The translations under genes and the position numbers were made by a program. Shown here piece by piece: positions 1,059 through 61,110 of a stretch of 64,000 bases of DNA. Numbering within the stretch: position 1 is the stretch's first letter; each line of letters starts with the position of its first letter. Where the stretch lies: NCBI GenBank assembly GCA_017438945.1, contig JAFRUI010000013.1, positions 29,611 to 93,610 of the forward strand. Direction: 5' to 3'. The notes under the pieces were generated by a model. The model did not search any database, was not told the origin of the DNA, and was given only the letters and a program-made list of their open reading frames with translations. Source of the stretch: Bacteroidales bacterium (GTDB lineage Bacteria; Bacteroidota; Bacteroidia; Bacteroidales; WCHB1-69).

Positions 1059-1090
1059 TTATGCATTATGAATTATGCATTATGAATTAA
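1059..1090. repeat. (ATTATG)-word array; right arm, reverse complement of the 618-685 array
   Basis: ttatgcattatgaattatgcattatgaattaa. Its reverse complement starts TTAATTCATAAT, identical to the first 12 nt of the left arm. It overlaps the last codons and stop of the minus-strand LytTR gene. Confidence 0.85.
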
Positions 1091-2144
1091 CATGGTAACC
1101 GCCGTGGCGCTTGCTGCCGACGTATTTGACGAGCTTGCGTTTGCGGAGCTCGGAAAGGCAACGCTCGACCGTGCTCAGCGAAATCTCGGTCTGGGCGACG
1201 ATATCTGTGGTGTTGCAGCCCGGATTCGCCTGAACGCAGGATTGAACCATGTCGAGTTTCTGCTGCGGGGGGACGACGGGCTTCCGCTTGGACTTCGACC
1301 GGGGCTTTCTCTTCGGAGCTTGTTCCCCTGCTGTTTCGGCCTTGCATCGCTGAAGACCCTCGGCGACCTGGTCGGCAATCAGGCCACTGTTTTTGGGATC
1401 CAACGTGAACGTGAGCGGCTTCTTCGTCCACGGCATCTTTTTCAGGAACACCTCGCTGCCGTTGCACGACCAGATGTACTTATACGGAACCAAAACGGTG
1501 GGCGAAATGCGGACAAAGTCTTCTTCCCCAAACAGTTGCACAAGATGTTTCATGGAGCCGAGCCGTGTAAACCAACGGTCATGCACCGTATAGATGCGGG
1601 TGAAGTTCCCGTCCTGAACACAATAGTAGATGTCGTCTTTGGGAATCATTAAGAGGTTACTCTCATTGTCTATTACATCCACCATCTGAGTGTCGCGATA
1701 GACCACATGCACCTCCGTGTCCAAGGCCTTTCGCAGTTCCTGCCGTTCGCGGAACATAAACGGGAAGAAGTTGAATGCCAAGGTACGGGCAGCCACAACT
1801 CTCCCATGATGGGTAAACATTCTGAAGGCGCCAAATTGCTCTATAACCTCCGCATTACAATATTTCATCCATTTCCAGGCGATAACCATCTCAATCAATC
1901 CTGCCACAAAGGAAACGAAAACCACTACCACCCAATAGACAACCGGATGCTTTTTATGAAGTAGGGGGTAAAACAGGAAATAGTTGGCATATATGGTGGC
2001 CAACAACAACAGCCCCGCAAGCACTTCATTGGTGACACTGCCCGCCCATGGACGAAGATAGGAGTTGTTGACAAAGAAGTAGAGCAGCACGGCGCAGAAC
2101 AAGACGTTCAGCAAAACGATAACGATGGTTCTTCGGTGTTTCAT
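1080..2144 (-). CDS. Membrane-anchored LytTR-domain protein with a K/P-rich linker and a C-terminal winged-helix module (paralog of 60004-61110)
   Basis: Hydrophobic N-terminal helices (TIVIVLLNVLFCAVLLYFFV, VLAGLLLLATIYANYFLFYPLL, VVYWVVVVFVSFVAGLIEMVIAW). LytTR-like core (IPKDDIYYCVQDGNFTRIYT...FVRISPTVLVPYKYI). C-terminus is NPGCNTTDIVAQTEISLSTVERCLSELRKRKLVKYVGSKRHGGYHV. Start moved to ATG 2144 because a -7 box lies at 2205-2212, inside the longer track ORF. Confidence 0.6.
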   Translation of the reverse strand: MKHRRTIVIVLLNVLFCAVLLYFFVNNSYLRPWAGSVTNEVLAGLLLLATIYANYFLFYPLLHKKHPVVYWVVVVFVSFVAGLIEMVIAWKWMKYCNAEVIEQFGAFRMFTHHGRVVAARTLAFNFFPFMFRERQELRKALDTEVHVVYRDTQMVDVIDNESNLLMIPKDDIYYCVQDGNFTRIYTVHDRWFTRLGSMKHLVQLFGEEDFVRISPTVLVPYKYIWSCNGSEVFLKKMPWTKKPLTFTLDPKNSGLIADQVAEGLQRCKAETAGEQAPKRKPRSKSKRKPVVPPQQKLDMVQSCVQANPGCNTTDIVAQTEISLSTVERCLSELRKRKLVKYVGSKRHGGYHVNS

Positions 2145-2204
2145 AATCGGACATCCATATTTGTTTATTATTATGCTTCTTGTTTTCGGGTCTGAAAGTC
2201 GCTG

Positions 2205-2212
2205 CAAAGATA
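2205..2212 (-). promoter_or_regulatory. Bacteroidota -7 promoter box (TATCTTTG on the minus strand) for the LytTR gene
   Basis: Plus strand reads caaagata, which matches TAnnTTTG on the minus strand. It lies 61 nt upstream of ATG 2144. Confidence 0.55.
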
Positions 2213-2334
2213 GTGAATTAATCCAAACAAAACCCCAGAAAACAGCCCCATTCCCTCACAGAAAAGCCCTCTAAAGCCCTCATAACAGCACAAAAATCAA
2301 ACATTTGCATAATGTATTGAAAATCAGATTTTTA

Positions 2335-2343
2335 CCCCCCCCC
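2335..2343. repeat. Homopolymeric C9 tract in the divergent control region
   Basis: tttttaCCCCCCCCCgaaat. The longest G/C homopolymer I noticed in the window. Confidence 0.95.
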
Positions 2344-2385
2344 GAAATATCCGTTCAAAAACCGTAATCCGGTCACATTTTTACA

Positions 2386-2414
2386 GTGAGGGAACATATT
2401 TTTTATGTGAGGGA
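2386..2414 (+). promoter_or_regulatory. Direct repeat GTGAGGGA x2 with 21-bp periodicity; candidate LytTR-type operator
   Basis: acaGTGAGGGAacatattttttatGTGAGGGAtataaa. Cores are at 2386-2393 and 2407-2414. The second core ends 23 bp upstream of the -7 box at 2438. Confidence 0.45.
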
Positions 2415-2437
2415 TATAAAAGTGTTGCGAAAGATAG

Positions 2438-2445
2438 TATTTTTG
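2438..2445 (+). promoter_or_regulatory. Bacteroidota -7 promoter box (TATTTTTG) for the giant T9SS cargo operon
   Basis: gtaTATTTTTGccg, 35 nt upstream of ATG 2480. The same ...gtatttttgcc context recurs upstream of murG, tRNA-Ser, hflX and mtgA. Confidence 0.65.
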
Positions 2446-2479
2446 CCGTCAGAAACTGATATAATTGAATGATTTCGTC

Positions 2480-5191
2480 ATGAAAAAGTTATTTATTATC
2501 CAATGGTTGATGTTGATTTCAATTCTAACTGTTGTGGCACAGGAGCCTGCTCTTCCCTACACGGCCACTTTTTCCACGTCGGAAGGATGGGTGCTGAACA
2601 ATGGTGATGCTCAGAATTACTGGATATTAGGTACCTCTGGCAGTAACAATGCACTCCTTGTGACCAACAACGGTGTCACCCCCACCTATTCCTACACCCG
2701 GAGTAATGTTGCTGCGGAAAAGACATTTGTGGTCGGGGATGCGGACAAGATTATTGTCTCTTTCGATCTGAAATGCGGCGGCAAGTACAACAAAGACTTT
2801 CTGAAGATGTTTTTGGCGCCTCCTTCCCAGATCTACGAGGGTGGAATCGCCTACTCGTGGGGTGTCAGTACGAATTCCCTCTATGCAGCCAACTTCAGCG
2901 ACCACTTCGACATGACCAACACGCCAAACTATCCTTACATTATCAATTTGACAGATGGCAAAACTATCCATTTGGATGTTCGGATGAACAATCCGATTGC
3001 CAATCCCGATACCAACTCAATTGCAAAACTGGTTTTTGGATGGGTTAATGACTACGGCAGCACTTACGATCACGGAATCCAGCCCGCACCAACAATCACC
3101 AATTTGCGTTTGAAAAGAGAGACCTGCACCCCTCTTACCGGATTGTCCGTCTCCAACATCCAGAGCCATTCAGTAGAGTTGTCGTGGAATATGCCTGAGG
3201 GTGGCACCTCTAATTATATTGTCCAATATGCTAAAGATGGCCAGAATTGGAACGATGCCTATATTACCACCGTGAACGTGCAGGACACGTCTGTGACGTT
3301 GACTGGATTGCAATCTATAACAAAATATTGGGTAAGGGTGGCACGCAATTGCGGTAGCGATACCAGTGTCTGGATCAAACAATCCTTCACTACACTTTGT
3401 GAATATATTGACACCCTTCCTTACATCTGCGACTTATCTCTTGTTTCAAGTACTATGCATCCGATTCCTGTTTGTTGGGAAAGAGGCCCAGGAAGCTGCT
3501 GCGACCCTGTTATTAGCTATGGTGCTATCAATCTTTGGATTCCCAACACCATCTCGATGCCGCATTTGAACAGACAGCTCATTGATATAAATACTGTGGA
3601 GGTTTCCTTTTCCGCCAGAAGTGAAACGAACAATGGCACCTTGATCATTGGTGTGATGACCGATGCCAGCGAAGACTCCACGTTTGTGGCTGTTGACACG
3701 CTAAGCCTGACTACATCATACGAGACTTATTTGGTTCCGATAAACGGTTACACTGGAGTTGGGGACAGAGTCTCTTTCAAATGTATCGACCACAGCGACA
3801 TATACGTGAAAGATGTGCTCCTTGACTATACGCTTTCGTGTCCAAGGCCATACGATTTGGAATCGTCCAGTCCTACGCATAACAGTATCAATTTGAGTTG
3901 GACGGGAACAGAATCATCCTGTAACCTATACTACCGAATCAAGGGGAACAATGCATTTACGGTTGTGCCGAACGTGTCGTTGAATAACAATGGCGTTTAC
4001 ACTTTGTCGGGACTGACCTCGGGTACAATTTACCAATGGTATGTGGCGGCACGATGCGATGACGGCACCGAAGCGGCAAGTCACGAACTCCACGATTTTT
4101 CTACTCTTTGCGATCCAATTGTTGAGCTTCCCGCGACTTGGGACTTTGAATATTATAACAATGAGACCATGTTGCCTGTATGTTGGAAAACATTATCCGC
4201 ATCTGCTACCATTAGGACGGACGAGTCTCACAGTGGTACACGGGTGCTGCGGCTGTACTACGTAGATAACGGGTCAAACATTGTCGTACTCCCCAAAGTG
4301 GAGGACAATCTCTATCCGATTGATAATTTGCAAATTAAGTTCTATGCCAAGAATATGGGAACTTATAGCGATTGGCATGTTCAGGTCATCGGTGGACTGA
4401 TTACGAATCCAGAGAACAGTTCCACCTTTATTCCTAACGACACAATTGATGTGATTGGTGCGGCAGGCGGAAGTTTCCAGGAATATACGCTTCGCGTGGC
4501 GGATTATCATTGGGCGGATGGCTATCCCGCCATAAGGTTTGTGAGAGTTAATGGCCCAATGTGGCTTCACATTGACGACCTGACATTGGAGGCCATCGAT
4601 TCCACATTACTCCCGGTGCGCCCCTCTGTGATGACTGTTGACGCAGACCCCATCGGACAGACAACCGCGACACTGAGCGCCACCATCAACAATCCGGACA
4701 ATCTGCTTGTCTCTGCAGCGGGTTTTGAGTGGCGTGATATTTCGGACAGCGCGTTTACGCAGGTCGATTGTTCCATCTCGAATAACGCTTTCATGACCGA
4801 ATTGACCAGCTTGACCGCAAACATGACTTACGCCTACAGGGCATTCATCACCTATTTTGGTATAACCGACTATAGTGAGGAAACGTTCTTTGCCACTTTG
4901 CCTAATAATAATGACTCGGTCCATGTTGACGACTATTTGCTCAGCTGCATCAAGCTATATCCGAATCCGGCAAATGAGTATATCGATGTACAATGTACAA
5001 TGAACGATGTACAATTGGAGGGCATTGAGGTGATAGATGTTTACGGCAAGGTAGTCCGTACCATTGTAGGTGCGAATAATCATTCGCCCCTACAGACCCG
5101 CATCAACATTTCAGGATTGGCCGGTGGCATCTATTTTGTGCGTTTGACCACCGATAAAGGCATTGTGATAAAGAAATTTGTGAAGAGATAA
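2480..5191 (+). CDS. T9SS-secreted surface protein (903 aa) with FN3 domains, beta-sandwich modules and a type A C-terminal sorting domain
   Basis: Signal peptide MKKLFIIQWLMLISILTVVAQ. FN3-like segments (CTPLTGLSVSNIQSHSVELSWN..., CPRPYDLESSSPTHNSINLSWT). GVMTD...STFVAVDT modules. C-terminus is YPNPANEYIDV...GIYFVRLTTDKGIVIKKFVKR. The track start at 2465 is a TTG. Confidence 0.85.
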   Translation: MKKLFIIQWLMLISILTVVAQEPALPYTATFSTSEGWVLNNGDAQNYWILGTSGSNNALLVTNNGVTPTYSYTRSNVAAEKTFVVGDADKIIVSFDLKCGGKYNKDFLKMFLAPPSQIYEGGIAYSWGVSTNSLYAANFSDHFDMTNTPNYPYIINLTDGKTIHLDVRMNNPIANPDTNSIAKLVFGWVNDYGSTYDHGIQPAPTITNLRLKRETCTPLTGLSVSNIQSHSVELSWNMPEGGTSNYIVQYAKDGQNWNDAYITTVNVQDTSVTLTGLQSITKYWVRVARNCGSDTSVWIKQSFTTLCEYIDTLPYICDLSLVSSTMHPIPVCWERGPGSCCDPVISYGAINLWIPNTISMPHLNRQLIDINTVEVSFSARSETNNGTLIIGVMTDASEDSTFVAVDTLSLTTSYETYLVPINGYTGVGDRVSFKCIDHSDIYVKDVLLDYTLSCPRPYDLESSSPTHNSINLSWTGTESSCNLYYRIKGNNAFTVVPNVSLNNNGVYTLSGLTSGTIYQWYVAARCDDGTEAASHELHDFSTLCDPIVELPATWDFEYYNNETMLPVCWKTLSASATIRTDESHSGTRVLRLYYVDNGSNIVVLPKVEDNLYPIDNLQIKFYAKNMGTYSDWHVQVIGGLITNPENSSTFIPNDTIDVIGAAGGSFQEYTLRVADYHWADGYPAIRFVRVNGPMWLHIDDLTLEAIDSTLLPVRPSVMTVDADPIGQTTATLSATINNPDNLLVSAAGFEWRDISDSAFTQVDCSISNNAFMTELTSLTANMTYAYRAFITYFGITDYSEETFFATLPNNNDSVHVDDYLLSCIKLYPNPANEYIDVQCTMNDVQLEGIEVIDVYGKVVRTIVGANNHSPLQTRINISGLAGGIYFVRLTTDKGIVIKKFVKR

Positions 5192-5220
5192 CTCTGTTTA
5201 TATACAAATAAAAATTCGCT

Positions 5221-8200
5221 ATGAAAAAGTCTTGTATAATATGGTGTTTGCTTTTAATGGCCACATTGTCTCTGCCGACAGAGAAGTTGGAGGCGGAAAC
5301 GAGTGGCACAGGTCTGCCATTTGCATTGTCGAATTCCCTCTCCGATTGCGATTCCCCGAACGCGTTACATGTGTCCTCTGTGGCTGGTTCATCGGCGATG
5401 GTCATCTGGTCACCGCCCACGGCTAATCTGCCCGACAGCTACATCGTGCGGTATAAGGCGGATGCACAACCTGTCTGGACGGAAGTTGTCGCTATTGACA
5501 CCTTTTTGATGTTGACAGGATTAGAGAGAGCTACTCGCTATTGTGTCAACTTGTTCTATGTCTGTGGATTTGACACCACATTGTCATCGTCGGTATGTTT
5601 TAGGACGCTTCATTATCTGGAATGCTTGGAAACAGATCCCAACCCTACTGTCATTTCGGGCTCTCCCCAATTGGAATCAGGAAGTTTTCCGATATCGGGA
5701 GCCCTCCACTCCTACCGTGAAGAGATTATCAGAGCCCACGAACTCAGTCCTGACGGTAGCCCTGTTTTGCTCACGGGTATCTCCTACCAGTACACATCCC
5801 CATATCCTTTAGATACCAAAAATCATGTGGAAATCTATTTGACACATCGTGAAGATAGTGTTTATAGTAATAGCTTTGACTTTACCCCTCTTACTGAAGC
5901 TTCTTTAGTTTATGTGGGGAATTTTTACTGTCAGTTAGGATGGAATTATTTTGAGTTTTCTACCCCGTTCTATTTTGATGGTATTCATAATCTGGTTGTC
6001 TTTGTGTTAGATAAAACAGTCGATACTGCAACCGGCAGCAAAGCATACCACAAGTTTAAATGCCACGCAATACCCAACAACTATGTTTCATTGGGTTGGG
6101 TGACCACTTCACCTTTGGATCCCAATGCACCATTTCTCCCCACAGCTGATTTCATCCGCAACAATATGCGTTTCACGGTTTGTTCGCATTCCGAAAGCGT
6201 TCCTTGCTCTCCACCTAATATTTATCATCACGAATGGTCGAACGACAGCGTAACAATATACTGGGCATCGGGGTTGAATGATTCTGTTTGGGTGTTGCGT
6301 TATAGGTTGTTGGGAGACAATGGTTGGACTTATGATTCCACGGCTACTTCGCCGTACAAGATCTATGCACCATCACCAGACAGCATATACGGCATCGAAC
6401 TCCAATCGAAATGCGGTGACAGTCTGTACAGTGTTTGGAAATCGCCATTCTCAACAACGGATTCCCCTTGTCGTCCGGTAAGCGACATCACCTTGTCGTC
6501 CGTGAGTGAGCATACCGCCGAAATCACCTGGGTCCCAGGCGGAAACGAAAGTTTTTGGACATACTATCCTGTTGCGGATTTCACCACACCCGCCCCACCG
6601 CCTGCTAATGAGGGCTGGATTGCCACGACAGACCCTCTTTTGTTAGACTCACTTGCTGAGGGACATTGTCATCATCTCTGGATTAGAGCAGGTTGCGGTG
6701 CGGGAAACCTCAGTTCAGCCCAACCCTTTGAATTTTGGACAAGTTGCCATGAAATAGACCACTTACCTTATACTGAAGATTTCAACAACCCTGAAGATAC
6801 GATATATCTTGGTGCGCAAAATTCGGGACCGCTACCGCATTGCTGGCAAAAACTGAGCCCTTATCTCAACTCAGGACCTTATTGCACCAGTGATAGCTGT
6901 CTCATGTTTTACAGCACCAACAATGAATACAAGGTGGCCATTCTGCCGCGCCTTTCCGACGACCTGCTGATTTCCCACCTCAAGATGAGCTTCTACTGCA
7001 AGAAACTGCAAAATTCCTATTCATCCTCTTTGATAGTAGGTGTGATGGACAACCCCACAGATCTTTCTTCGTTCACACCTGTGGATACAGTTTACACTCC
7101 AGATGTCAATTGGTGGAATTGGCATCAAAGGGAGGTTTTTTTCGAAAATTACACGGGGACGGGACATTACATCGCTTTGAAATATCAGAATTCTTCCTCA
7201 AATTATTTCAAGATGGACAACTTGACGATAGATACCGCGTTCACCTGCCATACGCCCACAAATCTGATGGCGACAGGCATTTCACCCTCATCCATTTACG
7301 TGACTTGGGAGGATGAGGACGGTGAGAATGAGTGGCAGGTGGCGTTAGTGCCCAGCTATCTCACAGATCCCGACAGTAATCATATTGTTACCGTGCATGA
7401 GAAACATTATCTGGCTACAAATTTGACAGATAGCAATTATGTGTTCTTTGTCCGGACACATTGTGCCAATGGGTGGGGGTACAGTGAATGGACCTCTATT
7501 CCCGTGACCTCTTTTGCTTATCAGCCCGCCACGGTTCCTTACTCCCATAATTTCGAAGCCGGAAACGAGAATGCCGCGTGGCGGATGGAAAGCATGAATC
7601 CTGTCAGTCGGTGGCAAATCGGTGTCCCTAATGGTTACAGTGATTCATTGCTCTTTGTTACCAACAACGGCACGGATGCCTCATACGGCAACTCGTTGGC
7701 TGAGGCATGGGCGTACCGGGACTTTCTGTTAAGCGATGCCACCGAATACGAGATTAGGTTCAGATGGCTTTGTAAGGGGCATTCTTCATGGGCATATATG
7801 CAGGCGTTGGTCGGGGAACCCGCACCGATACCCCCTATAACCAACTTTGCAGACATTGTCTATCCCGAGGGTTCTGTTCCGATAGGCAATTATGCACTTC
7901 AGAATAATTGGAAGACAACCCGTTACGTATTGGGAAGCGAAAACGACAATACGGTGCGGCGTCTCTACTTCCGGTGGCGTAACGCGTATAATTCTGTGTA
8001 TCCTCCGGGAGCGGTCATCGATAATGTGCAGATAGTCCCTTATCACTGTTCGCGCCCTGTGGATGTCACGTTTGAGGGAGCGACGGCACATGAAGCTTTC
8101 ATCTCCTTCTCTTCTGGGGGGATTGAGCAGGTCGCCTGGCAATATGTGATTGATGCCGGTGATTTTGACCCCGACACAGTTTCAAATGTGGTTACGGTAC

Positions 8201-10209: not shown

Positions 10210-10217
10210 TATCTTTG
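10210..10217 (+). promoter_or_regulatory. -7 promoter box (TATCTTTG) immediately after the stop of the 1662-aa gene
   Basis: aaTAGTATCTTTGcac. The stop TAG is at 10207-10209, and the box lies 67 nt upstream of ATG 10284. Confidence 0.5.
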
Positions 10218-10283
10218 CACCCAAAACTTTGAACTTTGAACTTTGAAACTTGAATTCTGAAACTTAGAAAAAAACATATTATT

Positions 10284-43860: not shown

Positions 43861-43899
43861 GGGTTCAAGATTTAAGGTTCAAAGTTGAAATTTGAAGAT

Positions 43900-44877
43900 A
43901 TGAAAAAGATATTGACATCTGTTGTTGTTTCCTTGCTGTTTTTGTGCACGATGCAGGCGCAAAACAACATTCTGAACAGTGATTTCGAGTTATGGTCTTA
44001 CGGGAAACCGGTGGGCTGGACTGTCGGTCTGCACGGAACCATCACCTCGTTTGTGAATCTTCCCGTGGAGGTTAATTTCGGCACCCAGAGCAGCGAAGCG
44101 CATGGGGGCAGTTCGGCCGTCAAATTGATGTCCGCAGACTTCACCATACCTTACGTAGGATATTCCCTGAATTTGCCCGGCATTCTGCAAGTCGGGGAAT
44201 CGGAAGGCTTTACCATCCCGTTGGAAGACATCATGAACATCGCCAACATGTTTCAGGACACGACCGGTTTCGGCGGACTGGATTCCACAGACATGTCCTC
44301 GCTTTCCTCCCTGACACGTCTGCTCTCCAATGGAGTCCCCTGCACTCAGGTTCCCGCATCCGTTACCGCGTGGGTGAAATACCAACCTCAGGAAAACGAC
44401 CAACTTATAATGTTAGCCGTGGCGAAAAAAGAGGGCATGCCTATCAGTTACAACTATGGCAGTTTCCAAACAGATGACCCTAACGCCTACCAAAAAATCG
44501 GAATCGACCTTGACATGCCCAATGCGGAATGCGACTCCATTATGATTGTCATCCTCTCTTCTTTGCAGCTCGGCAGCAGCTCTGTGTTGTATGTGGATGA
44601 CGTCTCGTTGGAATACAGTGGCGTAGGGATTTCTGACATGGAAAGCTATACAGGAAAGATCTATCCTAATCCCGCCGGCGACCGCCTCTTCATACAACCT
44701 GAAAATGAAGAGGTTTACGAATGGACATTGACGGATCTGAAGGGCAAGCTGTTACAAAGCGGCAAAGCCTCCGGTGGAGTTTCCATTGACACAAAAACTT
44801 GTGTTCCAGGCATGTATTTAATTCAAATCCGTGAGCAAGGCGAGACCAGCACCCACAAGGTAATGATTACACGATGA
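43900..44877 (+). CDS. T9SS type A cargo protein with a PCMD-like (putative carbohydrate metabolism) domain
   Basis: Signal peptide MKKILTSVVVSLLFLCTMQAQ. NSDFELW...GWT opening, which I tentatively recall as PCMD-like. C-terminus is YPNPAGDRLFI...GMYLIQIREQGETSTHKVMITR. The track start at 43885 is a TTG. Confidence 0.6.
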   Translation: MKKILTSVVVSLLFLCTMQAQNNILNSDFELWSYGKPVGWTVGLHGTITSFVNLPVEVNFGTQSSEAHGGSSAVKLMSADFTIPYVGYSLNLPGILQVGESEGFTIPLEDIMNIANMFQDTTGFGGLDSTDMSSLSSLTRLLSNGVPCTQVPASVTAWVKYQPQENDQLIMLAVAKKEGMPISYNYGSFQTDDPNAYQKIGIDLDMPNAECDSIMIVILSSLQLGSSSVLYVDDVSLEYSGVGISDMESYTGKIYPNPAGDRLFIQPENEEVYEWTLTDLKGKLLQSGKASGGVSIDTKTCVPGMYLIQIREQGETSTHKVMITR

Positions 44878-49844: not shown

Positions 49845-49874
49845 TGTAGAGACGCGCCATGGCGCGTCTCTACA
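49845..49874. terminator. Perfect 30-nt palindrome between convergent genes; bidirectional terminator candidate (GTAG-family)
   Basis: TGTAGAGACGCGCCATGGCGCGTCTCTACA. The stop codon of the minus-strand 1770-aa gene (49870-49872) lies inside the right arm. Confidence 0.7.
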
Positions 49875-52800: not shown

Positions 52801-55182
52801 GAGAATCTGCGACTGGGTGCCGGCAGCGAGGAACACCAGACCGTTCCAGCTCAGCGGAAGCTCGTTCTGGCAGCAGACGCTGTCAACATGCACCGTGTCC
52901 GAATAGTTCACCGTCAGCTCTATCCGGCGAGTGTACGGGCAGCCGTCGGAGTTGTTGATGACGCGCTCGTGAATCCCCGATTCCGTATAGACCGTGTCGA
53001 ACCACGCATAGCGGTTGCAGACCGTAATCTCGGAGACCACCGCGGAGGTGTCCGACACGTCCACGTGGACCGTGGTGGTGCTATCGCACCCGTGGATGTT
53101 GGGGACGGTGACGCTCTGCGTGCCCGCCTCTGTGAATGTGAAACCCCGCACGGTCACCGGCAGGCTCTGAGGGCAGACCAGCGTGTCGAGCTGCACCGTG
53201 TCCGCGTAGTGGACCGTCACGTACGCCGTCACAATGCTGTCGCAGCCGTAACGGTTCTCCAGCGTCTGCGCATACACTCCGCTCTCAGGGTATACTTCCC
53301 CGTTCCAGACGAACGCCCCGCACACGACGGTGTCGAAAGCGGCGACGCTAGACGGGTTTACTGTCAGGGTCAAAGTGACAACGGAGTCGCAACCGAAACG
53401 GTTGGTGAAAGCTTTCGTATAAACACCTGATTGCGTGTAAGTTTCACCAGCCCAAGAGTAAAAATCGCATGCCGTCTGGGCGATATTGACAGAATCTGAA
53501 ACATTCACTATGAGATGGACGGTAACAATACTATCGCAACCGAACTGATTCGCAAATGTTCTTGTATAAATTCCTGATTGTGTATATGTTATTCCTTCCC
53601 AAATTAAAGAATCGCATACCGTCTGGGAAACGCTGGTCGTCGAAACGGGGTTGATATGGAGAGTCATCACCACTACACTGTCATATCCCTGGTAAGATGG
53701 GATGGTCACGTCATGTGTTCCGGCCTCTGCAAACATAATCCCATTCCAAACGAGGGGCAGGGCATTTTCGCAAACCGTGCTGTCCACTCTAACCGTGTCC
53801 AAATGCAAAATGGTGATATTTAATTGGATAACACTATCGCAACCGTACTGGTTCTGGTATTCAAACGTATAAGTCCCTGATTCTGTGAAAAGAGTATCGT
53901 CCCAAACCAAACCGTCGTAGGCACTGGTATCTATGGTGAAATATTGTGAGTAATGAATCGTGATGTCCAAAAACACGACACTGTCGCAGCCGTTGCCGTT
54001 GGTGAGATGTTGTGTATAAGTTCCTGAATAGTTGTATGTTGTACCATTCAGCGTATAGGAATCGCAGGAGGATTCGGTCAGATAGGCAGTGTCGGGTTCA
54101 TGGAGGGTGAGATGGAGGATCACCGTGCTGTCACAACCATTGGAAGAGAGGAAATGTTGCTCGTAATCGCCTTCTTCATAGAGGGTTATACCATTCCAAA
54201 GGTAAGTCTGGCAGGCCTCTTCGTAAATCTCGTTGGTGATAGAAGGCAGGACGGTCAGGTAGAGGGTCACGACAGCGGAGCAACCGTCGGCGGTGACGGT
54301 GCGCGTGCGGGTGATGGTGCCCGGCGTGGCGGTTTCCTCCGCGCTGACAGTGAACCCGTTGGCCTCGTACGGCTCACCCTGACAAACCTCATCGTAAATC
54401 TCCTGCGGCATGTTCTCGGCCACGAAGATGGTCCGTTCGGCTGTCGCACTGCATCCGCTTTCGTTGGTGGCGGTCACGGTGTAGGTGGTGGTCTGCGGCG
54501 GCGACGGGTTGATGTACGGCTCTGTACTGCCCGTGCTCCACTGGTAGGTCAGAGAAGTGTCATACTCAACCGGAGGAATTACGAAACTGCGAATGGCTCG
54601 TACTTTATGGTAGGTTCCACGATTGTATTGTGCGGGAATGAAAAATGACACAGCCCAAGCTTCGGTATTACTTACAAGACTACTGCTCCAATAATCACCT
54701 TCAGGGAGAGTGCCTCCCGCATTCGTCATTTTCTCATCAATAAAGGGAAAACTTGCCGTTAGCCGGAGCAACTGTCCGATCGCAGGAAGATACCATCCAT
54801 TGTCAAAATCCACCTCGGTGGCGGCGACAGGAACTGGATATGCCAGCGTTGCTTGGAAATTCCGGATAAGTTGAGTGTTGGAATAGCCAGCGGTATCATC
54901 TGTCATAAGTTTGTATAGCTCCATATTCCGTACATAATCATTTGGATTTGGATACGAAAAATACGGAAGCCCTGTGAACACAGGACCGTTTTGAGACCAT
55001 CTGATACTTTCCGACGCATCATCCAAAGCCACCACCCAACCCCCGCTTCCATCAGGGTGAAGATAAAAAATGATTCCCTGACTCCCGTCCGGTGCAGTAT
55101 ATAGGTCTCCTATCTGGTAGCTTTGTCCGAACAAATCTGCTACAAGAAAGAAAAGTGCCATATATACCACAATTTTCTTCAT
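49870..55182 (-). CDS. T9SS type B cargo protein (1770 aa): N-terminal DUF1566-like domain, ~30 two-Cys ~49-aa repeats, type B sorting domain
   Basis: Signal peptide MKKIVVYMALFFLVADLFGQ. DFDNGWYLPAIGQLLRL resembles the DUF1566 W.LP...EL core. Repeats follow C..Y.W.G.TYT.SG.YT.T.TN..GCDS.VTLHLT. C-terminus is LPNAITPSKSDGLNDVFSLP...ISIFNRWGEQVFYSTDKNFQWDG...GSVTVL. Confidence 0.85.
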   Translation of the reverse strand: MKKIVVYMALFFLVADLFGQSYQIGDLYTAPDGSQGIIFYLHPDGSGGWVVALDDASESIRWSQNGPVFTGLPYFSYPNPNDYVRNMELYKLMTDDTAGYSNTQLIRNFQATLAYPVPVAATEVDFDNGWYLPAIGQLLRLTASFPFIDEKMTNAGGTLPEGDYWSSSLVSNTEAWAVSFFIPAQYNRGTYHKVRAIRSFVIPPVEYDTSLTYQWSTGSTEPYINPSPPQTTTYTVTATNESGCSATAERTIFVAENMPQEIYDEVCQGEPYEANGFTVSAEETATPGTITRTRTVTADGCSAVVTLYLTVLPSITNEIYEEACQTYLWNGITLYEEGDYEQHFLSSNGCDSTVILHLTLHEPDTAYLTESSCDSYTLNGTTYNYSGTYTQHLTNGNGCDSVVFLDITIHYSQYFTIDTSAYDGLVWDDTLFTESGTYTFEYQNQYGCDSVIQLNITILHLDTVRVDSTVCENALPLVWNGIMFAEAGTHDVTIPSYQGYDSVVVMTLHINPVSTTSVSQTVCDSLIWEGITYTQSGIYTRTFANQFGCDSIVTVHLIVNVSDSVNIAQTACDFYSWAGETYTQSGVYTKAFTNRFGCDSVVTLTLTVNPSSVAAFDTVVCGAFVWNGEVYPESGVYAQTLENRYGCDSIVTAYVTVHYADTVQLDTLVCPQSLPVTVRGFTFTEAGTQSVTVPNIHGCDSTTTVHVDVSDTSAVVSEITVCNRYAWFDTVYTESGIHERVINNSDGCPYTRRIELTVNYSDTVHVDSVCCQNELPLSWNGLVFLAAGTQSQILQNRYGCDSVVVMTLEVTEVSYTTFDTTVCGVFEWEGSIYTQSGVYMKQLPGASGCDSMVLAHVTVVAPPLTVFDTVVCAGDLPVEWRGYLFGHADTLYFTGVSAMGCDSTAEYRLRTVEPDTVEQSVTACDVFEWAGDEYEEGGDITKVFSNIHGCDSVVTVHLTVNHAEAAEVSATSCDSYVWNGVTYTGSGDYTQTLTNAEGCDSVVTLHLTVHYSETEEVTETSCDSFVWEGETYTESGDYTRTYTTASGCDSTVTLHLTLSHAETVEISEMSCDEYLWDGETYSEPGDYTRTYTNVAGCDSVVTLHLTLNHADTSEFAETSCDEYVWEGETYTEPGDYTRTYTNVAGCDSVVTLHLTLNHADTAEFAETSCEEYVWDGETYSEPGDYTRTYTNVSGCDSVVTLHLTLNHADTTEIAETSCEEYVWEGETYTESGNYTRTYTNAAGCDSLVTLHLTLHHADTTEIAETSCDEYAWEGETYTGSGDYTRTYTNAAGCDSVVTLHLTLHHSETAEMTETSCEEYVWEGETYTGSGDYTRTFTNASGCDSVVTLHLAIAQNAAVQLDSSVCAGALPLLWNGVTFSSAGTQSVTHQTVSGCDSTVTMTLHVNSTYQLSEGRTVCQDELPYVWNGVTFSGPGTQSVTYQTVSGCDSTVTMTLSVSSTYQQMQSRSVCADELPYLWNGVAFIGPDTQTVTLQTVSGCDSVVTMQLAVLGLDSTELYETACDTFPWGGATYTESGDYTRTLTNMAGCDSVVTLHLTVYPAEVAEIAEAACEEYVWNGETYTESGDYTRSFTSMVGCDSTVTLHLTVIDTALEIISLTEDFCEGMSAELSVVTSMTDYEWSTGEEMPNITVTQPGVYSVTAMQGGCRATARYTVEGCDFQLWLPNAITPSKSDGLNDVFSLPQRVQSMIADFEISIFNRWGEQVFYSTDKNFQWDGSFKGKTFVNTVYTYIIRYTLAGGKPYRVTGSVTVL
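51115..52465 (-). repeat. Tandem 147-bp (49-aa) coding repeat, at least 9 consecutive units, several nearly identical
   Basis: The landmark gcagcgtcacca(c) recurs at 51138, 51285, 51432, 51579, 51726, 51873 and 52020, with variants at 52167 and 52314. Spacing is exactly 147 nt. Outer boundaries are approximate. Confidence 0.9.
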
Positions 55183-57588: not shown

Positions 57589-57629
57589 CATTTTTTTGTG
57601 AATTGTGAATTGTGATTGGTGAATTGGGG

Positions 57630-57657
57630 GTAGGGGCGAATAATTATTCGCCCCTAC
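57630..57657 (-). terminator. Perfect 28-nt palindromic hairpin after the LRR gene (GTAG-family, GGGGCGAATAAT type)
   Basis: GTAGGGGCGAATAATTATTCGCCCCTAC, 17 nt downstream of the stop at 57674. Confidence 0.7.
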
Positions 57658-57673
57658 AACATCCCGCAATCCG

Positions 57674-59272
57674 TTATTTCCTGACGATTTTCTGACGGTA
57701 TTCCTTCCCGTCACCGTTCGTCACGCGCAACACGTACACGCCCGCGGGAAGATTGGAGACATTGACGCGAATCGGGTTGCCCGTCACATTCTCCGTGTGG
57801 ACCAATTTACCGTAAATATCGAGAACCTCAACGGTCTCAACCTCAATTTGTACATTGTTCATTGTACATTGTACATTGACGTAATCGCTCGCCGGATTGG
57901 GATACACCTTGAAATCCGCCGGCGCGTATTCCTCCAAACCGACACACTCCTCATAGACGAGATTGCTGTAGTTGCTCCAACCAGGAGCGGACTGATACTC
58001 CGCTGTTTTCCCGCACGGCACTCGAACGTAAATAGTGCCCTGCTTGCTGAAAGTTGGATAACCGTCTCCTCCATTAATGGCGGGAGGTGTTTCACAGTAA
58101 ATATCCAACACCCTTAACCCTTCTCCAGCACTTGTAAAGAATGCTTTTTTGCCGATAGAAGTTACGGAAGCGGGAATGGCTATTTGCGTCAGCATAGGTG
58201 TGGCAGAAAAAGCATAGTTGTCAATGACGGCCAGCTGTTGAGGCAGTACGACATAATTCAAATTGGGACATCCTTCAAAACAGTATTCCGGAATAGTGTC
58301 AACCTGTGGCGGTATGACGACTGAAGAAATTGCTGTTTTTTCAAAGCAATAATGACCTAACCGCACAATATTGTCCGAAAGGATGAGTGTCTCCAAATGA
58401 TTGAGACCCATGAAGCAGAAGTCTGCCAATTCCAAAGGATTAGCTCCGGCCTGGAATTCTATGTAACGACAAGAATAGTCTTCATTTTCATACGAAAACC
58501 CGTCTCCCAGTGCAATTTTCTGCAAACTTCTCGGGAAAACCAAAGTATCAATGTATCTCGCCGAAAACGCTAACTGTTCTATTTCTTGTAACCCCTCATG
58601 AAAAGTAATCTTGGTCAGCGGACATCCCTGGAAGGCTCCGTAGGGTAACACGGTAACACCTGCTGGAATCTCCACTTCGCTGAGAGAAGAGTACGAAAAA
58701 GCAAAGTCCCCGATATAAGTCAAGACCGTGGGCAAATCAATGGATTCCAGCGGGGTGGACGAAAATGCGCCATAATTGATTCGGGTTACATTGGGCGACA
58801 TCATAATCTGATGCAGTGTGGAACCGTAAAAAGCACCAGTGTCAATGGTCTCCACCGAAGCAGGCAACACCACGGTGTGCATGCCCTTCTGATAGTAGAA
58901 AGCCTCTTTATCAATGGATTTCACCGAATAGGTCTGCCCTTGATAGGTCACCGAGGAGGGTATTGTTATCAGCGAGTCGTAATCATACACGGGATAAAGG
59001 AACCCGGGCTGCCCTATTTCAACAGAGCTTTGGGGTAGCGGAAGGGTGTGAAAGACCGAGTCATGACAACGGGTCACGGCCACGGTATAAGGCGCGGTGG
59101 CCGAAGTGATACGGTAATAAAGGGTGTCGCCATCTGCATTGGCGATCATGAAATCGTAGTCGGGATAAGGGTTCTGGGCGGAGAGGCTGCCCGTGAACAG
59201 GGAAAGCAGCAGAGCCAATGCGGTACCGAAATATCCGCGGATTCTCTTTCTTTGTGTTATTTTCTTTTTCAT
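57674..59272 (-). CDS. BspA-type leucine-rich-repeat protein with a T9SS type A sorting domain
   Basis: 532 aa with a signal peptide. Repeated I...AF..C..L..I.(I/L)P.SV..I...AF units. C-terminus is YPNPASDYVNVQCTMNNVQ...GVYVLRVTNGDGKEYRQKIVRK. Confidence 0.85.
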   Translation of the reverse strand: MKKKITQRKRIRGYFGTALALLLSLFTGSLSAQNPYPDYDFMIANADGDTLYYRITSATAPYTVAVTRCHDSVFHTLPLPQSSVEIGQPGFLYPVYDYDSLITIPSSVTYQGQTYSVKSIDKEAFYYQKGMHTVVLPASVETIDTGAFYGSTLHQIMMSPNVTRINYGAFSSTPLESIDLPTVLTYIGDFAFSYSSLSEVEIPAGVTVLPYGAFQGCPLTKITFHEGLQEIEQLAFSARYIDTLVFPRSLQKIALGDGFSYENEDYSCRYIEFQAGANPLELADFCFMGLNHLETLILSDNIVRLGHYCFEKTAISSVVIPPQVDTIPEYCFEGCPNLNYVVLPQQLAVIDNYAFSATPMLTQIAIPASVTSIGKKAFFTSAGEGLRVLDIYCETPPAINGGDGYPTFSKQGTIYVRVPCGKTAEYQSAPGWSNYSNLVYEECVGLEEYAPADFKVYPNPASDYVNVQCTMNNVQIEVETVEVLDIYGKLVHTENVTGNPIRVNVSNLPAGVYVLRVTNGDGKEYRQKIVRK

Positions 59273-59306
59273 TGTTGTGGAATTTAAGGGTTATAAATTT
59301 ATTTGG

Positions 59307-59314
59307 CAAAATTA
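59307..59314 (-). promoter_or_regulatory. -7 promoter box (TAATTTTG on the minus strand) for the LRR gene
   Basis: Plus strand reads caaaatta. It lies 35 nt upstream of ATG 59272. The context aaaaaaatgtaattttgcc is nearly identical to the box at 57581. Confidence 0.55.
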
Positions 59315-59333
59315 CATTTTTTTACGGTTTGCG

Positions 59334-59367
59334 GTTGTGGGGGCGAATAATTATTCGCCCCCACAAC
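59334..59367 (-). terminator. Perfect 34-nt palindromic hairpin (GTTGTGGGGGCGAATAATTATTCGCCCCCACAAC)
   Basis: Same element as 57630-57657 but with a compensatory A>G / T>C pair in the stem. Confidence 0.65.
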
Positions 59368-59380
59368 ATCCCGCAATCCG

Positions 59381-59670
59381 TTATTTCCTGACGATTTTCT
59401 GACGGTATTCCTTCCCGTCCCCGTCCGTCACGCGCAACACGTACACGCCCGCCGGAACGTGCCGCACGTTAATGGTGGCGGTGCCGACTTGTTGGGGCGT
59501 ATTGAATACGCCCCATAAAATACCAAGACAGGTCCGCTTTCCTTGCTACCCGTATTTGACAGAAAGACTCTGTTTCCCCATGCCTGAGTTTTTTCATCCT
59601 TTTGACATCCACTTGCTGTGAATAACATTATCCAAACGGAGAATGACAGCCATAGTAATTTTTTTCTCAT
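59381..59670 (-). pseudogene. Decayed T9SS cargo gene: a lipoprotein-type signal peptide joined out of frame to a ~50-codon sorting-domain tail
   Basis: The ORF 59670->59428 begins MRKKLLWLSFSVWIMLFTASGCQ. A different frame, open over 59545->59384, ends ...INVRHVPAGVYVLRVTDGDGKEYRQKIVRK with stop at 59381-59383. That matches the tail of the neighbouring LRR protein. No body domain lies in between. Confidence 0.6.
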
Positions 59671-59714
59671 AATTTTTACTTTTTTTGAATTTGTTATATA
59701 TGATATTGCGTCAA

Positions 59715-59722
59715 CAAAAATA
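59715..59722 (-). promoter_or_regulatory. -7 promoter box (TATTTTTG on the minus strand) for the decayed cargo gene
   Basis: Plus strand reads caaaaata. It lies 45 nt upstream of ATG 59670. Confidence 0.45.
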
Positions 59723-59802
59723 CAAATTGTTCGGCTCGTTTCCTCTTTTTTCTGTTTACTTTATCCTTCAAAGGGGCTTTTCATGACGAAATTGCCATAA
59801 TT

Positions 59803-59837
59803 TGATAGAATAACGATAAAATAAATGATAGAATAAA
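59803..59837 (+). promoter_or_regulatory. Direct repeat TGATAGAATAA x2 (23-bp period) in the divergent control region next to the second LytTR paralog
   Basis: ttTGATAGAATAAcgataaaataaaTGATAGAATAAac, with cores at 59803-59813 and 59826-59836. Confidence 0.35.
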
Positions 59838-59976
59838 CATTGACGAATGATATATATAACAAATTGGAAAACAACAATATACAAACCTTGTCTCCTGTTT
59901 TGCGGAATCTTATTTGCAAATAATCAAAATTTCGTCATATTCTTTCTTCAATCATGCCATTGAAACCTTAAAATCG

Positions 59977-59984
59977 TATTTTTG
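59977..59984 (+). promoter_or_regulatory. -7 promoter box (TATTTTTG) for the second LytTR paralog
   Basis: aaaatcgTATTTTTGcgctc, 20 nt upstream of ATG 60004. It lies inside the longer track ORF that starts at 59914. Confidence 0.55.
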
Positions 59985-60003
59985 CGCTCCTAAATTTCGC
60001 AAT

Positions 60004-61110
60004 ATGAGCAATAAATTGTCAACTTTCGGAAAAATCTGCATCCATGTCGGATTCTGTGTTATCATTGTCTTCTTCTTTGGTAGGAACACTGTCCTGCGTT
60101 TACCCTCCTGTGGCGCGATGTATAAAGAATACGTAACAGGACTATTGCCTTTGGTCTTGTTCTACGGCAATATGTTTCTCCTTTTCCCGCTTTTGTTTCT
60201 GAAAGAAAGACTGTTTGCGTACATTGGTTCTGTCACCCTATGCCTACTTGCCGCCACCTGTGCGGAACTCGCATGGGTTTATCCACAAATCGCGCCTTCT
60301 TTGGTAAGCTTATTTGGAGCGGAATCCAGTAAGTATCTTATTGTCTATTACTTCCCTCTGGTTTTCTTACGAAATACAGGTTTCACCCTGTTCTCCTTCG
60401 CTTTTTGTGACATTCGCCATCAAACTACTCTAAAGGAGAAATATGAATCCCGACTGAAAGAAATCGCGGGCGAGGTGGACATCCAAAAGACAGACAATAC
60501 ACCAGTCTTTGCCAATATAAATGACATTCTCTATTGCCAACAGGGTAAAAATTTCTCTTGGGTATTTATGGCTGGAGGTAAATTCTATATCCGATACGGT
60601 TCCCTGAAGACATTGAAAAAACTGCTTGGGGAGAATCTTTTGATTGATGTGTCGAAAGGGTTGTTTGTTATGCTGGATAAAATCCACTCCTACGATGAGG
60701 CATCCATCACCATAAGGGATTCAGTTCAAGACAAACTGCACTCGTTTGAATGGGGGACTGGCTATTATGAAAATGCACGACGGAAGTTGTCTGTCAGCCC
60801 TTCACAAGAAGCTAGGGAAACCTTTTTGAAAAACTCCTCGGAAAAGGCAACAAACGCGCCCCTGACCCTTGAAAGCAAAAAACATCTGAACGCCGTTTTC
60901 AGATTGCATCCGAATTTCCGCCCTGTCTATTCTTACATTCGGCAGCATCCAGGTTGTAAGGCAAACGACATCTCCTCAAAACACACAATCCCTACAGGCA
61001 GCCTCAACCGCATCCTCAAACAACTCAAAAACGAGGGTCTCATCGAGTACACCGGCAGCAAGAAGACCGGCGGGTACCGCGTGCGACAACAGCCATCATC
61101 GGAAAGCTAA
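60004..61110 (+). CDS. Membrane-anchored LytTR-domain protein with a C-terminal winged-helix module (paralog of 1080-2144)
   Basis: Same architecture as the first copy: TM helices (ICIHVGFCVIIVFFF, LLPLVLFYGNMFLLFPLLF, IGSVTLCLLAATCAELAWV), a LytTR-like core (ININDILYCQQGKNFSWVFM...), and the C-terminus HPGCKANDISSKHTIPTGSLNRILKQLKNEGLIEYTGSKKTGGYRV. Confidence 0.6.
   Translation: MSNKLSTFGKICIHVGFCVIIVFFFGRNTVLRLPSCGAMYKEYVTGLLPLVLFYGNMFLLFPLLFLKERLFAYIGSVTLCLLAATCAELAWVYPQIAPSLVSLFGAESSKYLIVYYFPLVFLRNTGFTLFSFAFCDIRHQTTLKEKYESRLKEIAGEVDIQKTDNTPVFANINDILYCQQGKNFSWVFMAGGKFYIRYGSLKTLKKLLGENLLIDVSKGLFVMLDKIHSYDEASITIRDSVQDKLHSFEWGTGYYENARRKLSVSPSQEARETFLKNSSEKATNAPLTLESKKHLNAVFRLHPNFRPVYSYIRQHPGCKANDISSKHTIPTGSLNRILKQLKNEGLIEYTGSKKTGGYRVRQQPSSES

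Follow-up and report, generated by a model that had tools for sequence, protein, structure and literature searches.

The stretch analyzed here, which we call the window, comprises 64,000 nucleotides of contig JAFRUI010000013.1 from a Bacteroidales bacterium (assembly GCA_017438945.1). It contains two genes coding for the regulatory proteins A and B. A faces an operon of three genes coding for type IX secretion system (T9SS) cargo, and B faces the remnant of a decayed gene, followed by a cargo gene with leucine-rich repeats (LRR). All coordinates are positions within the window. Labels such as L001 refer to the genome loci which we have compared, and labels such as P0295 to proteins. Both regulators are built from a membrane anchor, a LytTR domain, a linker and a small winged helix, an arrangement which the original prediction, made from this DNA alone, had recognized and which is borne out by Pfam, AlphaFold and Foldseek. 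They belong to a previously undescribed family of membrane-anchored LytTR-winged-helix regulators, found in gut and rumen Bacteroidales. In our opinion these proteins are probably self-contained one-component regulators, anchored in the membrane and acting locally, which would work as auto-regulated LytTR switches.

Domain organization of the regulators

A and B can be aligned end to end, with 24% identity (E = 3e-27). By their sequences they are full-length paralogues, as had been claimed. The LytTR domain (PF04397) scores 24.3 bits in A and 24.7 bits in B, the curated Pfam gathering score being 22.6. It is matched in every one of 114 family members, with a best E value of 8.6e-10. The proposed winged helix fares less well in profile searches. 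Its Pfam matches in A and B are below threshold (HTH_24, E = 2e-4; MarR_2, TrmB and IclR, about 1e-3), but HTH_24 is found at E ≤ 1e-3 in 87 of the 114 family members, with a best value of 7.9e-8. The MarR and MarR_2 scores (18.6–19.6 bits) lie below the cut-offs of 24.6–27, which does not place these proteins in the MarR family. No NCBIfam model matches A or B. Neither Pfam nor NCBIfam detects a receiver domain (Response_reg), a receiver-PglZ, a histidine kinase or an extracytoplasmic function (ECF) sigma domain in them, and there is no Pfam match to MHYT at E ≤ 1. With the broad class of transmembrane transcription regulators (PMC10269533) they share predicted transmembrane helices and a LytTR domain on one chain.

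Hydropathy reveals three strong and one weaker hydrophobic helices at the N-terminus. The AlphaFold models, built from family alignments, have pLDDT (predicted local distance difference test) values of 84 for A and 82 for B, above 85 within the LytTR region, and present the same layout in both proteins. In the A model there are four long helices (residues 2–26, 37–63, 67–96 and 106–135), the fourth of which runs on as a connector to residue 151. They are followed by a beta-rich domain (154–247), another helix (250–271), a disordered stretch rich in K, R and P (273–288) and the winged helix (294–352), formed by helices 294–306, 312–319 and 323–335 and wing strands 339–342 and 349–352. The transmembrane helices, estimated at three to five in the original prediction, are therefore four. 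When compared with the PDB by Foldseek, the beta domain corresponds to the LytTR domains of B. cereus 3d6w, AgrA (4xqj, 3bs1, 4g4k) and ComE (4cbv), with E values from 5e-5 to 1e-3, TM-scores of 0.74–0.80 and root mean square deviations of 2.2–3.3 Å. The C-terminal domain corresponds to the winged helices of MarR, SmtB, Z-alpha and DIP2311, with E values about 1e-2 and TM-scores up to 0.85 (Z-alpha). A profile search against PDB sequences only gave weak winged-helix matches and no LytTR match.

The distribution of charges in A (an N-terminal MKHRR, a KK joining helices 2 and 3, RERQ past helix 4), together with the helices found by hydropathy and AlphaFold, points to an in-out-in-out-in topology, which would leave the N-terminus and the DNA-binding part in the cytoplasm. 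In the model there is almost no periplasmic mass, the loops on that side being very short. Several residues are invariant across the family: R31, P32, G35 and E40, which lie in loop 1 or where helix 2 begins, as well as Y52 and N54 within helix 2. This suggests that the membrane domain is more than an anchor. It would be the entry point for a signal, whose input site might be the conserved loop RNxFLRPYAGS on the periplasmic side. Alternatively, the membrane domain might be a simple tether, and regulated proteolysis would free the LytTR-winged-helix part, or the winged helix alone through a cut in the linker. Several transcription regulators bound to the membrane are known to be controlled in this way (PMC10269533), and the very short periplasmic loops, the long connector and the disordered basic linker at 273–288 would suit it. 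Nevertheless, no protease, kinase or partner gene is conserved near the regulators in the neighbourhoods of the 78 loci described below and of the window, the invariant residues argue for more than an anchor, and CoxC, another membrane-bound LytTR regulator, binds DNA while still in the membrane. We consider proteolytic release quite unlikely.

At least 350 relatives of A are found in a large protein collection, nearly all of them unnamed metagenome proteins. One NCBI relative bears the title 'winged helix-turn-helix transcriptional regulator [Bacteroidales bacterium]'. The B subfamily has 60 members, with the same Pfam pattern as A. With E ≤ 1e-30 as the limit, a profile search of 1.84 billion representatives gave 141 clusters (50% identity), and with E ≤ 1e-10 it gave 294. 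Most of these clusters have 340–410 amino acids and span the whole profile, so the architecture is conserved. Short members (118–284 amino acids) were considered as a possible subfamily lacking the winged helix, an idea which we rejected: they are mostly split or frameshifted genes. A scan of genomes, one per species, with two peptide patterns that miss B-type genes, gave 78 loci, all of them in metagenome-assembled genomes (MAGs) of uncultured Bacteroidales from rumen, horse, deer, reindeer and human gut. Some MAGs have several copies, four in RUG083 and five in both RUG312 and ruminal_MAG_164, B-type copies not counted. A tblastn search of A against plasmids and phages gave no match.

Paired boxes in the control regions

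A phased direct repeat had been predicted in the control regions of both A and B. These repeats exist, with a spacing of 21 and 24 bp in A and 23 bp in B, and similar spacings are found in the whole family. Exact 7-mer repeats upstream of the regulators form 119, 98, 33 and 43 pairs at 21, 22, 23 and 24 bp, respectively, and about 0–10 pairs at each of the other spacings from 8 to 60 bp in the same regions. If we consider only 17 representatives with less than 60% identity, there are 38, 26 and 21 pairs at 21, 22 and 23 bp, and 1–5 elsewhere. In 53 kb of intergenic DNA taken from elsewhere in these loci the spacing profile is flat, except for tandem repeats with a 7-bp unit. A spacing of 21–24 bp is far beyond chance across the family.

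The layout of the control regions was obtained by placing the 17 upstream regions side by side, and by a count of positionally conserved 7-mers which starts from no assumption. Reading from the target side, the start of the divergent gene is followed by its -7 element (TATTTTTG, which is GCAAAAATAC on the regulator strand) and by a pair of boxes pointing to the target. Then there are often a poly-G tract and an AT-rich part-palindrome (TAnTATATTGATAWTCAATATATTA), followed by a second pair of boxes, which points to the regulator, and by the -7 element of the regulator (TATCTTTG or TATTTTTG). The distance from this element to the ATG is about 25–30 nt in the layout (the element is placed about 32 nt ahead of the start codon in most paralogues), while A has about 54 nt. 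The target-side boxes have a spacing of 21 bp and the core lies 24 nt from the -7 element, a geometry found in 14 of the 21 cases scored. On the regulator side the boxes are 22–24 bp apart and lie 37–42 nt from the -7 element (37 of 40 scored), so that the repeat upstream of the own promoter which marks auto-regulation in LytTR regulatory systems (LRS) is present in these sequences. All promoter elements have been assigned by consensus only.

The elements found in the window are shown in Table 1. Those of the A control region are kept in the A orthologues. No TTTG -33 element is seen in the promoter of the cargo operon facing A, where the proximal box covers positions -43 to -36, approximately. 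The pair of boxes upstream of B did not arise in any of 100 shuffles and is conserved in the B orthologues L079 and L081. Within the window there are no paired boxes other than those beside A and B. On the other hand, the single GTGAGGG motif is present at chance level, with 9 copies found and 8.8 expected, three of the nine being within the A control region. An Rfam search over the window only detected a tRNA-Ser, so there is no known RNA element in the control regions. A small upstream open reading frame (MDVRL), which overlaps the start codon of A, was dismissed, as it is not conserved in the orthologues.

The boxes are bipartite, with a 5' half which varies between branches and a common 3' half, GATAAAT in the boxes of the regulator side and WCAYATTT in those of the target side. 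The variable half is GTGAGGG in A and many others, GAGACGG in L017–L026, CGAGGYG in L042 and L068, GATAGAA in B, L079 and L081, GATGGAA in L070–L072, and ACACAAT in P0295. Since it tracks the branch of the regulator, every paralogue seems to be dedicated to the neighbour beside it. The suggestion of a dedicated local regulator, made for A and B in the original prediction, agrees well with these branch-specific cores and with the restriction of the box pairs of the window to both regulators. Each paralogue would thus serve its own adjoining cassette, with T9SS cargo and lipoproteins.

According to the mechanism which we favour, the four transmembrane helices would lead, through the long connector helix, to the LytTR domain, and from there, through the disordered basic linker, to the small winged helix. 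The LytTR domain would bind in tandem to the paired boxes with their period of 21–24 bp, as other LytTR regulators do. Binding to the regulator-side pair, 37–42 nt upstream of the own -7 element, would provide auto-regulation. The target-side pair abuts the -33 position of the surface-protein operon, and its likely effect would be activation, which is favoured by a target promoter without a -33 element.

The opposite effect has also been considered. The regulator might be a repressor, similar to CoxC, which occludes the -33 region of the surface-protein operon and is released on receiving a signal. The target-side proximal box does lie over the -33 region (about -43 to -36) and ends 24 nt from the -7 element, and repression by CoxC is associated with an operator which overlaps the -35 box (PMC11347149). 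Both facts speak against activation. However, the target promoters have no recognizable TTTG -33 element, as expected of activator-dependent promoters, and the majority of LytTR proteins are activators which use direct repeats located just upstream of -35 (PMC6193735, PMC11347149). Repression appears unlikely to us.

The centre of the control region deserves a separate comment. A poly-G tract of at least 8 nt is found in 18 of the 76 family control regions and in 3 of 243 other intergenic regions. It is always on one strand and always followed by TAnTATATTGATAWTCA. The tract has the same position in L001–L006, L012, L013, L029, L034, L036, L042, L043, L048, L060–L064 and L068. Its length differs between nearly identical loci: it is 7, 11, 10, 10 and 10 in L060–L064, and 8 and 9 in L001 and L002. 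These differences may correspond to phase variation or to assembly noise, as homopolymer lengths in MAG assemblies can be wrong. The central 13-mer ATTGATAWTCAAT is not among the most shared 7-mers. With one mismatch at most, it is found in 12/76 family regions and 4/243 control regions, with two at most in 37/76 and 24/243. This enrichment is only moderate, and we keep the binding of the winged helix to the central palindrome as an idea and not as a finding.

The winged helix is a unit of about 60 amino acids in the models, with three helices and a wing, lacking the flanking dimerization helices of the MarR type. Helix 3 is STVERCLxELRKQG in A-type proteins and STVNRILKQLK in B-type proteins, and the wing is GSKKTGGY. 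Both are nearly invariant among paralogues whose boxes differ, so the winged helix, to judge from its sequence, cannot be what sets the specificity of each paralogue. What it reads may be the half-box which is constant in the family, or else the AT-rich element in the centre. A homologous winged helix is found at the C-terminus of a SLFN_AlbA_2/HATPase_c_4 protein (31% identity, E = 1e-8), which has the same GSKKTGGY wing. Proteins of this kind are common in the same genomes, and one with a PDB structure (3lmm) is a Foldseek match.

Another explanation is that the winged helix serves for protein interaction or oligomerization, or is a generic acquired module, and that LytTR alone reads the box of about 14 bp. 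The recognition helix, which hardly changes in A-type paralogues with differing boxes, is in favour of this explanation, as are the bare unit devoid of dimerization helices, the wing common to the SLFN_AlbA_2/HATPase_c_4 protein, and the existence of proteins with 8–9 tandem copies of the module. But an invariant reader would suit the constant half-box, the palindrome-like central element shows its moderate enrichment, and the closest folds are those of DNA-binding winged helices. We regard a role other than DNA binding as a real possibility, somewhat short of probable.

Several other points weigh against the favoured mechanism, that of locally acting, auto-regulated switches. The box pair of B lies 140 nt from the candidate -7 element, outside the geometry of the family, and its target-side boxes are degenerate. 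An attempt to fit the B promoter to this geometry failed: the sole TAnnTTTG is the one 140 nt off, which is not conserved in L081. The B control region is conserved in the orthologues, yet it fits the family geometry less well. Control regions of the P0314 type also lack the standard pair geometry, and in B the FVRIS motif is without its arginine, a nearly invariant residue. The open reading frame calls, in the 78 loci and in the window, and the hidden Markov model (HMM) of the sorting domain are ad hoc. Many of the 78 loci are orthologous and hence not independent. Finally, all family members come from uncultured organisms and are known from sequence only.

Table 1. Location of the regulators, their control elements and the adjoining genes in the window
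Feature	Position	Strand	Evidence and remarks
Regulator A	1080–2144	-	354 amino acids counted from ATG; domains by Pfam, hydropathy, AlphaFold, Foldseek
A, transmembrane helices and connector	about 1689–2144	-	hydropathy, AlphaFold
A, LytTR	about 1401–1688	-	Pfam, AlphaFold, Foldseek
A, winged helix	about 1089–1268	-	AlphaFold, Foldseek; disordered K/R/P-rich linker between LytTR and winged helix
A, candidate -7 element TATCTTTG	2205–2212	-	Bacteroidetes-type consensus; shared by most paralogues
A, regulator-side box pair	2250–2290	-	GTGAGGG 2253–2259, ATGAGGG 2277–2283; 24 bp apart, toward A
A, central element	2314–2343	-	G9 2335–2343 (C9 on plus strand), then AT-rich part-palindromic TAAAAATCTGATTTTCAATA
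A, target-side box pair CACATTTTTACAGTGAGGGA, CATATTTTTTATGTGAGGGA	2374–2414	+	cores 2386–2392, 2407–2413; 21 bp apart, toward cargo operon
Cargo operon, candidate -7 element TATTTTTG	2438–2445	+	consensus
Cargo operon facing A, three T9SS genes	2465–21437	+	Pfam, sorting-domain HMM
Cargo gene 1	2465/2480–5191	+	fn3, Por_Secre_tail (Pfam)
Cargo gene 2	5221–10209	+	fn3, Por_Secre_tail (Pfam)
Cargo gene 3	10284–21437	+	3717 amino acids; C-terminal sorting domain by HMM from verified examples of the window
LRR cargo gene behind remnant	57674–59272	-	BspA-type LRR_5, Por_Secre_tail (Pfam)
LRR gene, own -7 element	near 59316		reverse complement of GGCAAAATTAC; consensus
Decayed target gene	59382–59670	-	80-codon open reading frame; deletion fusion
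Decayed target, candidate -7 element TATTTTTG	59715–59722	-	consensus
B, target-side boxes, degenerate, tentative	59740–59769	-	reverse complement TTCCTCT, ATCCTTC, about 23 bp apart; weak match
B, box pair, TGATAGAATAA twice	59803–59836	+	59803–59813, 59826–59836; 23 bp apart, toward B
B, candidate -7 element TATTTTTG, tentative	59977–59984	+	just upstream of ATG; reads TATTTTCG in L081
Regulator B	60004–61110	+	368 amino acids; same domain layout as A
B, transmembrane helices and connector	about 60004–60471	+	hydropathy, AlphaFold
B, LytTR	about 60472–60750	+	Pfam, AlphaFold, Foldseek
B, winged helix	about 60916–61083	+	AlphaFold, Foldseek; disordered linker precedes
Recombination junction	61004–61110	+	within winged-helix codons of B (helix 3); high identity through hemerythrin and GerE genes

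A few minor features may be added. In the A orthologues L003 (about 7630–7720) and L005 (about 7660–7730), 7-nt tandem repeats of the GTTCAAG/GTTTCAA type replace the stretch which separates the start of the cargo gene from its promoter. Repeats with a 7-bp period are frequent in other intergenic regions of these MAGs, with peaks at 7, 14, 21, 28 bp and onward.

Neighbouring genes and cassette exchange

Pfam detects Por_Secre_tail, fn3 and LRR_5 domains in the neighbours of A and B, and the sorting-domain HMM adds the gene at 10284–21437, so that these neighbours are T9SS cargo genes, as proposed. The divergent pairing with genes for secreted proteins is also correct. Across the 78 loci and the window, a divergent gene precedes the regulator on its upstream side in 64 of the 72 cases. 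Downstream, the next gene is convergent in 48 of 64, and no recurrent family is found there. Genes with a sorting domain are found at position -1 in 16/85 cases and at -2 in 17/79, and in 1–6% of the cases at -4, -3 and +1 to +4. When pooled, they are 33/164 at -1 and -2 and 13/429 elsewhere (Fisher p = 1e-10). If regulator clusters are counted instead (n = 22), cargo is found upstream, at -1 or -2, in 12/22 and downstream in 4/22 (p = 0.027).

The most common immediate partner, present in 24 loci, is a lipoprotein of about 166 amino acids, rich in cysteine and with no Pfam match, often followed by a cargo gene. Other upstream partners are Fib_succ_major lipoproteins and a lipoprotein of 350 amino acids. 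Relatives of the B type, for which we have used independent gene calls and precomputed Pfam assignments, face a protein of 158–166 amino acids and then Peptidase_M4, Peptidase_S8 or LRR_5 genes with a Por_Secre_tail. The association is with exported surface proteins, among which T9SS cargo is enriched but not exclusive. The proposed link with T9SS cargo is therefore real but not specific, since lipoproteins are the most common immediate partner. As a side observation, the recurrent lipoprotein has about 160–190 amino acids and contains the motif CKGCVMMDGHRIHINCMGAGDEC. Examples are found in L061 (7198–7698), L058 (2673–3248), L081 (5166–5666) and L082 (5242–5739).

A striking case is the B locus, where regulators have been replaced. 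B, P0295 (L082–L084) and P0314 (L085 and L086) are only 29–32% identical, and all three are found at one position of the chromosome, with the same hemerythrin, GerE and DUF3857 genes downstream. Their final residues, GSKKTGGYRVRQQPSSES, are identical. DNA identity between the window and L082, L083 or L085 is about 40% along the regulator gene and 95–100% from 61004. On the left side, identity resumes at about 59328–59336. From these comparisons, the exchanged unit is the regulator body together with its control region and its target genes. Such joint exchange is independent genetic evidence that they work together.

The decayed cargo gene reported in the original prediction is real. Its 59514–59670 part corresponds to the 5' 52 codons of the gene for the 166 amino acid lipoprotein (81% identity with L081), and 59382–59513 to the 3' end, coding for the sorting domain, of an M4-peptidase cargo gene, which is intact in L082 (98% identity). 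Both parts are joined out of frame. To judge by its sequence, the own target of B is this deletion remnant. The LRR gene behind it, which was also considered to face B, accompanies every allele and has its own -7 element. B is probably either an orphan or a regulator which acts on the LRR gene by reading through.

We must consider whether the proximity to T9SS genes is incidental. In this case, A and B would be general envelope or stress regulators located in regions rich in surface proteins, and the repeats would serve another factor. It is true that cargo is only found at -1 or -2 in 12 of the 22 regulator clusters, that the window itself is rich in cargo genes, and that single GTGAGGG motifs are not over-represented in it. 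But an enrichment restricted to the upstream side, fixed distances from boxes to promoters on both sides, cores which track the regulator branch, and the joint replacement of the regulator with its boxes and target can hardly be accounted for unless the relationship is a cognate one. We consider an incidental association very unlikely.

The locally acting switch which we favour might be part of a more elaborate device, an exchangeable cassette which combines a two-headed cis regulator, an ON/OFF switch based on poly-G and swaps between strains. LytTR would read the cassette-specific half-box and the winged helix the constant half or the AT-rich centre. The poly-G tract between the box pairs would be hypermutable and set their helical phase, switching the cassette ON or OFF. 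The regulator body, control region and targets would recombine between strains, with one of the crossovers located in the winged-helix codons. If true, this would be a new route to variation of the surface proteome in gut and rumen Bacteroidales, unlike the invertible promoters of Bacteroides. As a joint proposal it appears rather doubtful to us.

Some other features are found at the B locus. A hemerythrin-domain gene (61146–61871) starts 36 nt after B and is followed by an overlapping gene for a GerE/LuxR-type regulator (61864–62454). Both genes follow every regulator allele at this site (L079, L082–L086), and may be co-transcribed with the regulator. A perfect palindrome of 17+17 nt (GTTGTGGGGGCGAATAA/TTATTCGCCCCCACAAC, 59334–59367) coincides exactly with the left edge of the swapped cassette. 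Its place in L082 is just 3' of the M4-peptidase cargo gene, before the LRR gene. We rejected this palindrome as an intrinsic terminator, as it has no adjoining U-run in either direction. There is also a 121-bp repeat (59337–59457 and 57630–57750), formed by the 3' sorting-domain ends of two cargo genes and a little downstream sequence, which could be a substrate for deletion or recombination at this locus.

Comparison with known systems

Described regulation of the T9SS centres on PorXY/SigP in Porphyromonas. PorX/PorY and SigP are unrelated to the LytTR-winged-helix family. We have found no gene-local regulator of T9SS cargo in the literature. A description of this family was not found either, in the literature on LytTR together with T9SS, Bacteroidetes, Prevotella or Porphyromonas, or in that on poly-G phase variation in Bacteroidales.

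Two 9-bp direct repeats which are 10–13 bp apart, usually just upstream of -35, form the canonical site of LytTR proteins, and it is typical of LytTR systems to activate their own promoter by way of such repeats (PMC6193735, PMC11347149). Transmembrane regulators are enriched in Bacteroidota, according to a survey (PMC10269533). LytTR regulators with several transmembrane segments, Btheta7330_RS19915 and Bovatus_RS21375, were identified in silico in B. thetaiotaomicron and B. ovatus by Zou et al. 2018 (PMC6193735). By their description, these LRS-like regulators of Bacteroides resemble those discussed here in some respects: they belong to Bacteroidia, have several transmembrane segments before LytTR, and have predicted 11-bp repeats 11 bp apart (a 22-bp period), located upstream of a promoter of the TAnnTTTG type, and are presumed to regulate themselves. 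On the other hand, they are co-transcribed with an upstream NfeD-like/DUF2154 membrane protein, absent from our family, and no winged helix, divergent surface-protein partner or second box pair has been described for them.

CoxC, from Afipia carboxidovorans, is a characterized membrane-bound MHYT-LytTR one-component regulator (PMC11347149). Like A and B, it has an integral-membrane N-terminus, a disordered linker and a LytTR domain, which binds direct repeats at the adjoining promoter without leaving the membrane. However, it is a repressor from Alphaproteobacteria with metabolic targets, three repeats, no winged helix and a gas-sensing MHYT domain with six transmembrane helices, in contrast to the four helices of A and B, which do not match MHYT.

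AgrA and ComE have the same LytTR fold (TM-score 0.75–0.80 to AgrA), and the agr P2/P3 region also contains paired direct repeats with a period of about 21 bp, located between divergent promoters and serving both the own and the target promoter. They depend on a receiver and a histidine kinase, whereas A and B are anchored in the membrane, have an additional winged helix and use -7/-33 promoters of the Bacteroidetes type. The LRS HdrRM and BrsRM of Streptococcus mutans are also LytTR systems controlled from the membrane, with auto-regulatory 9-bp repeats 11–13 bp apart (PMC6193735). There, a separate membrane inhibitor holds a soluble regulator; in A and B the regulator itself contains the membrane part, and a conserved partner gene is lacking.

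ToxR and CadC, like A and B, combine a membrane anchor and a DNA-binding domain on one polypeptide (PMC10269533). They have an N-terminal winged helix of the OmpR type, a single transmembrane helix and a periplasmic sensor domain. In A and B the order is reversed, there are four transmembrane helices and almost no periplasmic mass, and LytTR is the main DNA-binding domain. The SLFN_AlbA_2/HATPase_c_4 proteins (DIP2311-like, PDB 3lmm) have the same module of three helices and a wing, ending in GSKKTGGY-x-V. In these soluble proteins it is placed behind AlbA_2 and an ATPase-like domain, and a fusion with LytTR has not been described there.

The original prediction spoke of an uncharacterized control device. 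This is correct for the winged helix and for the cis architecture, but not for membrane LytTR regulators as such, which are known (PMC6193735, PMC11347149). In the literature we have found no description of a fused C-terminal winged helix, of the absence of a partner protein or of a strict divergent pairing with genes for exported proteins, nor of a control region with two box pairs and branch-specific boxes, of the poly-G tract or of cassette exchange. No study of a LytTR domain fused to a second domain of the DNA-binding type was found.

These proteins would provide abundant, uncultured rumen and gut Bacteroidales with regulators dedicated to single loci, whose operator boxes can be predicted. 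Their targets would be giant adhesins, BspA-type LRR proteins, M4 and S8 peptidases and uncharacterized lipoproteins. The strict geometry and the branch-specific boxes make the system directly testable, and might yield orthogonal promoter-regulator pairs for the engineering of Bacteroidales. Cassette swapping and the variable length of poly-G point to variation of surface proteins between strains, of relevance for attachment to host or fibre.

Some additional observations concern other proteins. The window contains four more T9SS substrates, two of them with type-B (CHU_C-like) tails (41602–43860 and 49870–55182, CHU_C by Pfam) and two with type-A tails (43885–44877 and 45913–49824). They have no adjoining LytTR-winged-helix regulator and no paired boxes. 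In L017 (4357–7617) and L020 (5535–7613), Fib_succ_major proteins present a Por_Secre_tail-like domain which is N-terminal (residues 88–157, approximately; E = 1e-4, below threshold) and not C-terminal. Finally, P0168 (581 amino acids) and P0231 (788 amino acids) consist of this small winged helix (…ELKKEGKVEREGG…GYYRV) repeated 8–9 times in tandem, with charged linkers between the copies. The start of P0168 is a hydrophobic stretch which has the appearance of a signal peptide.

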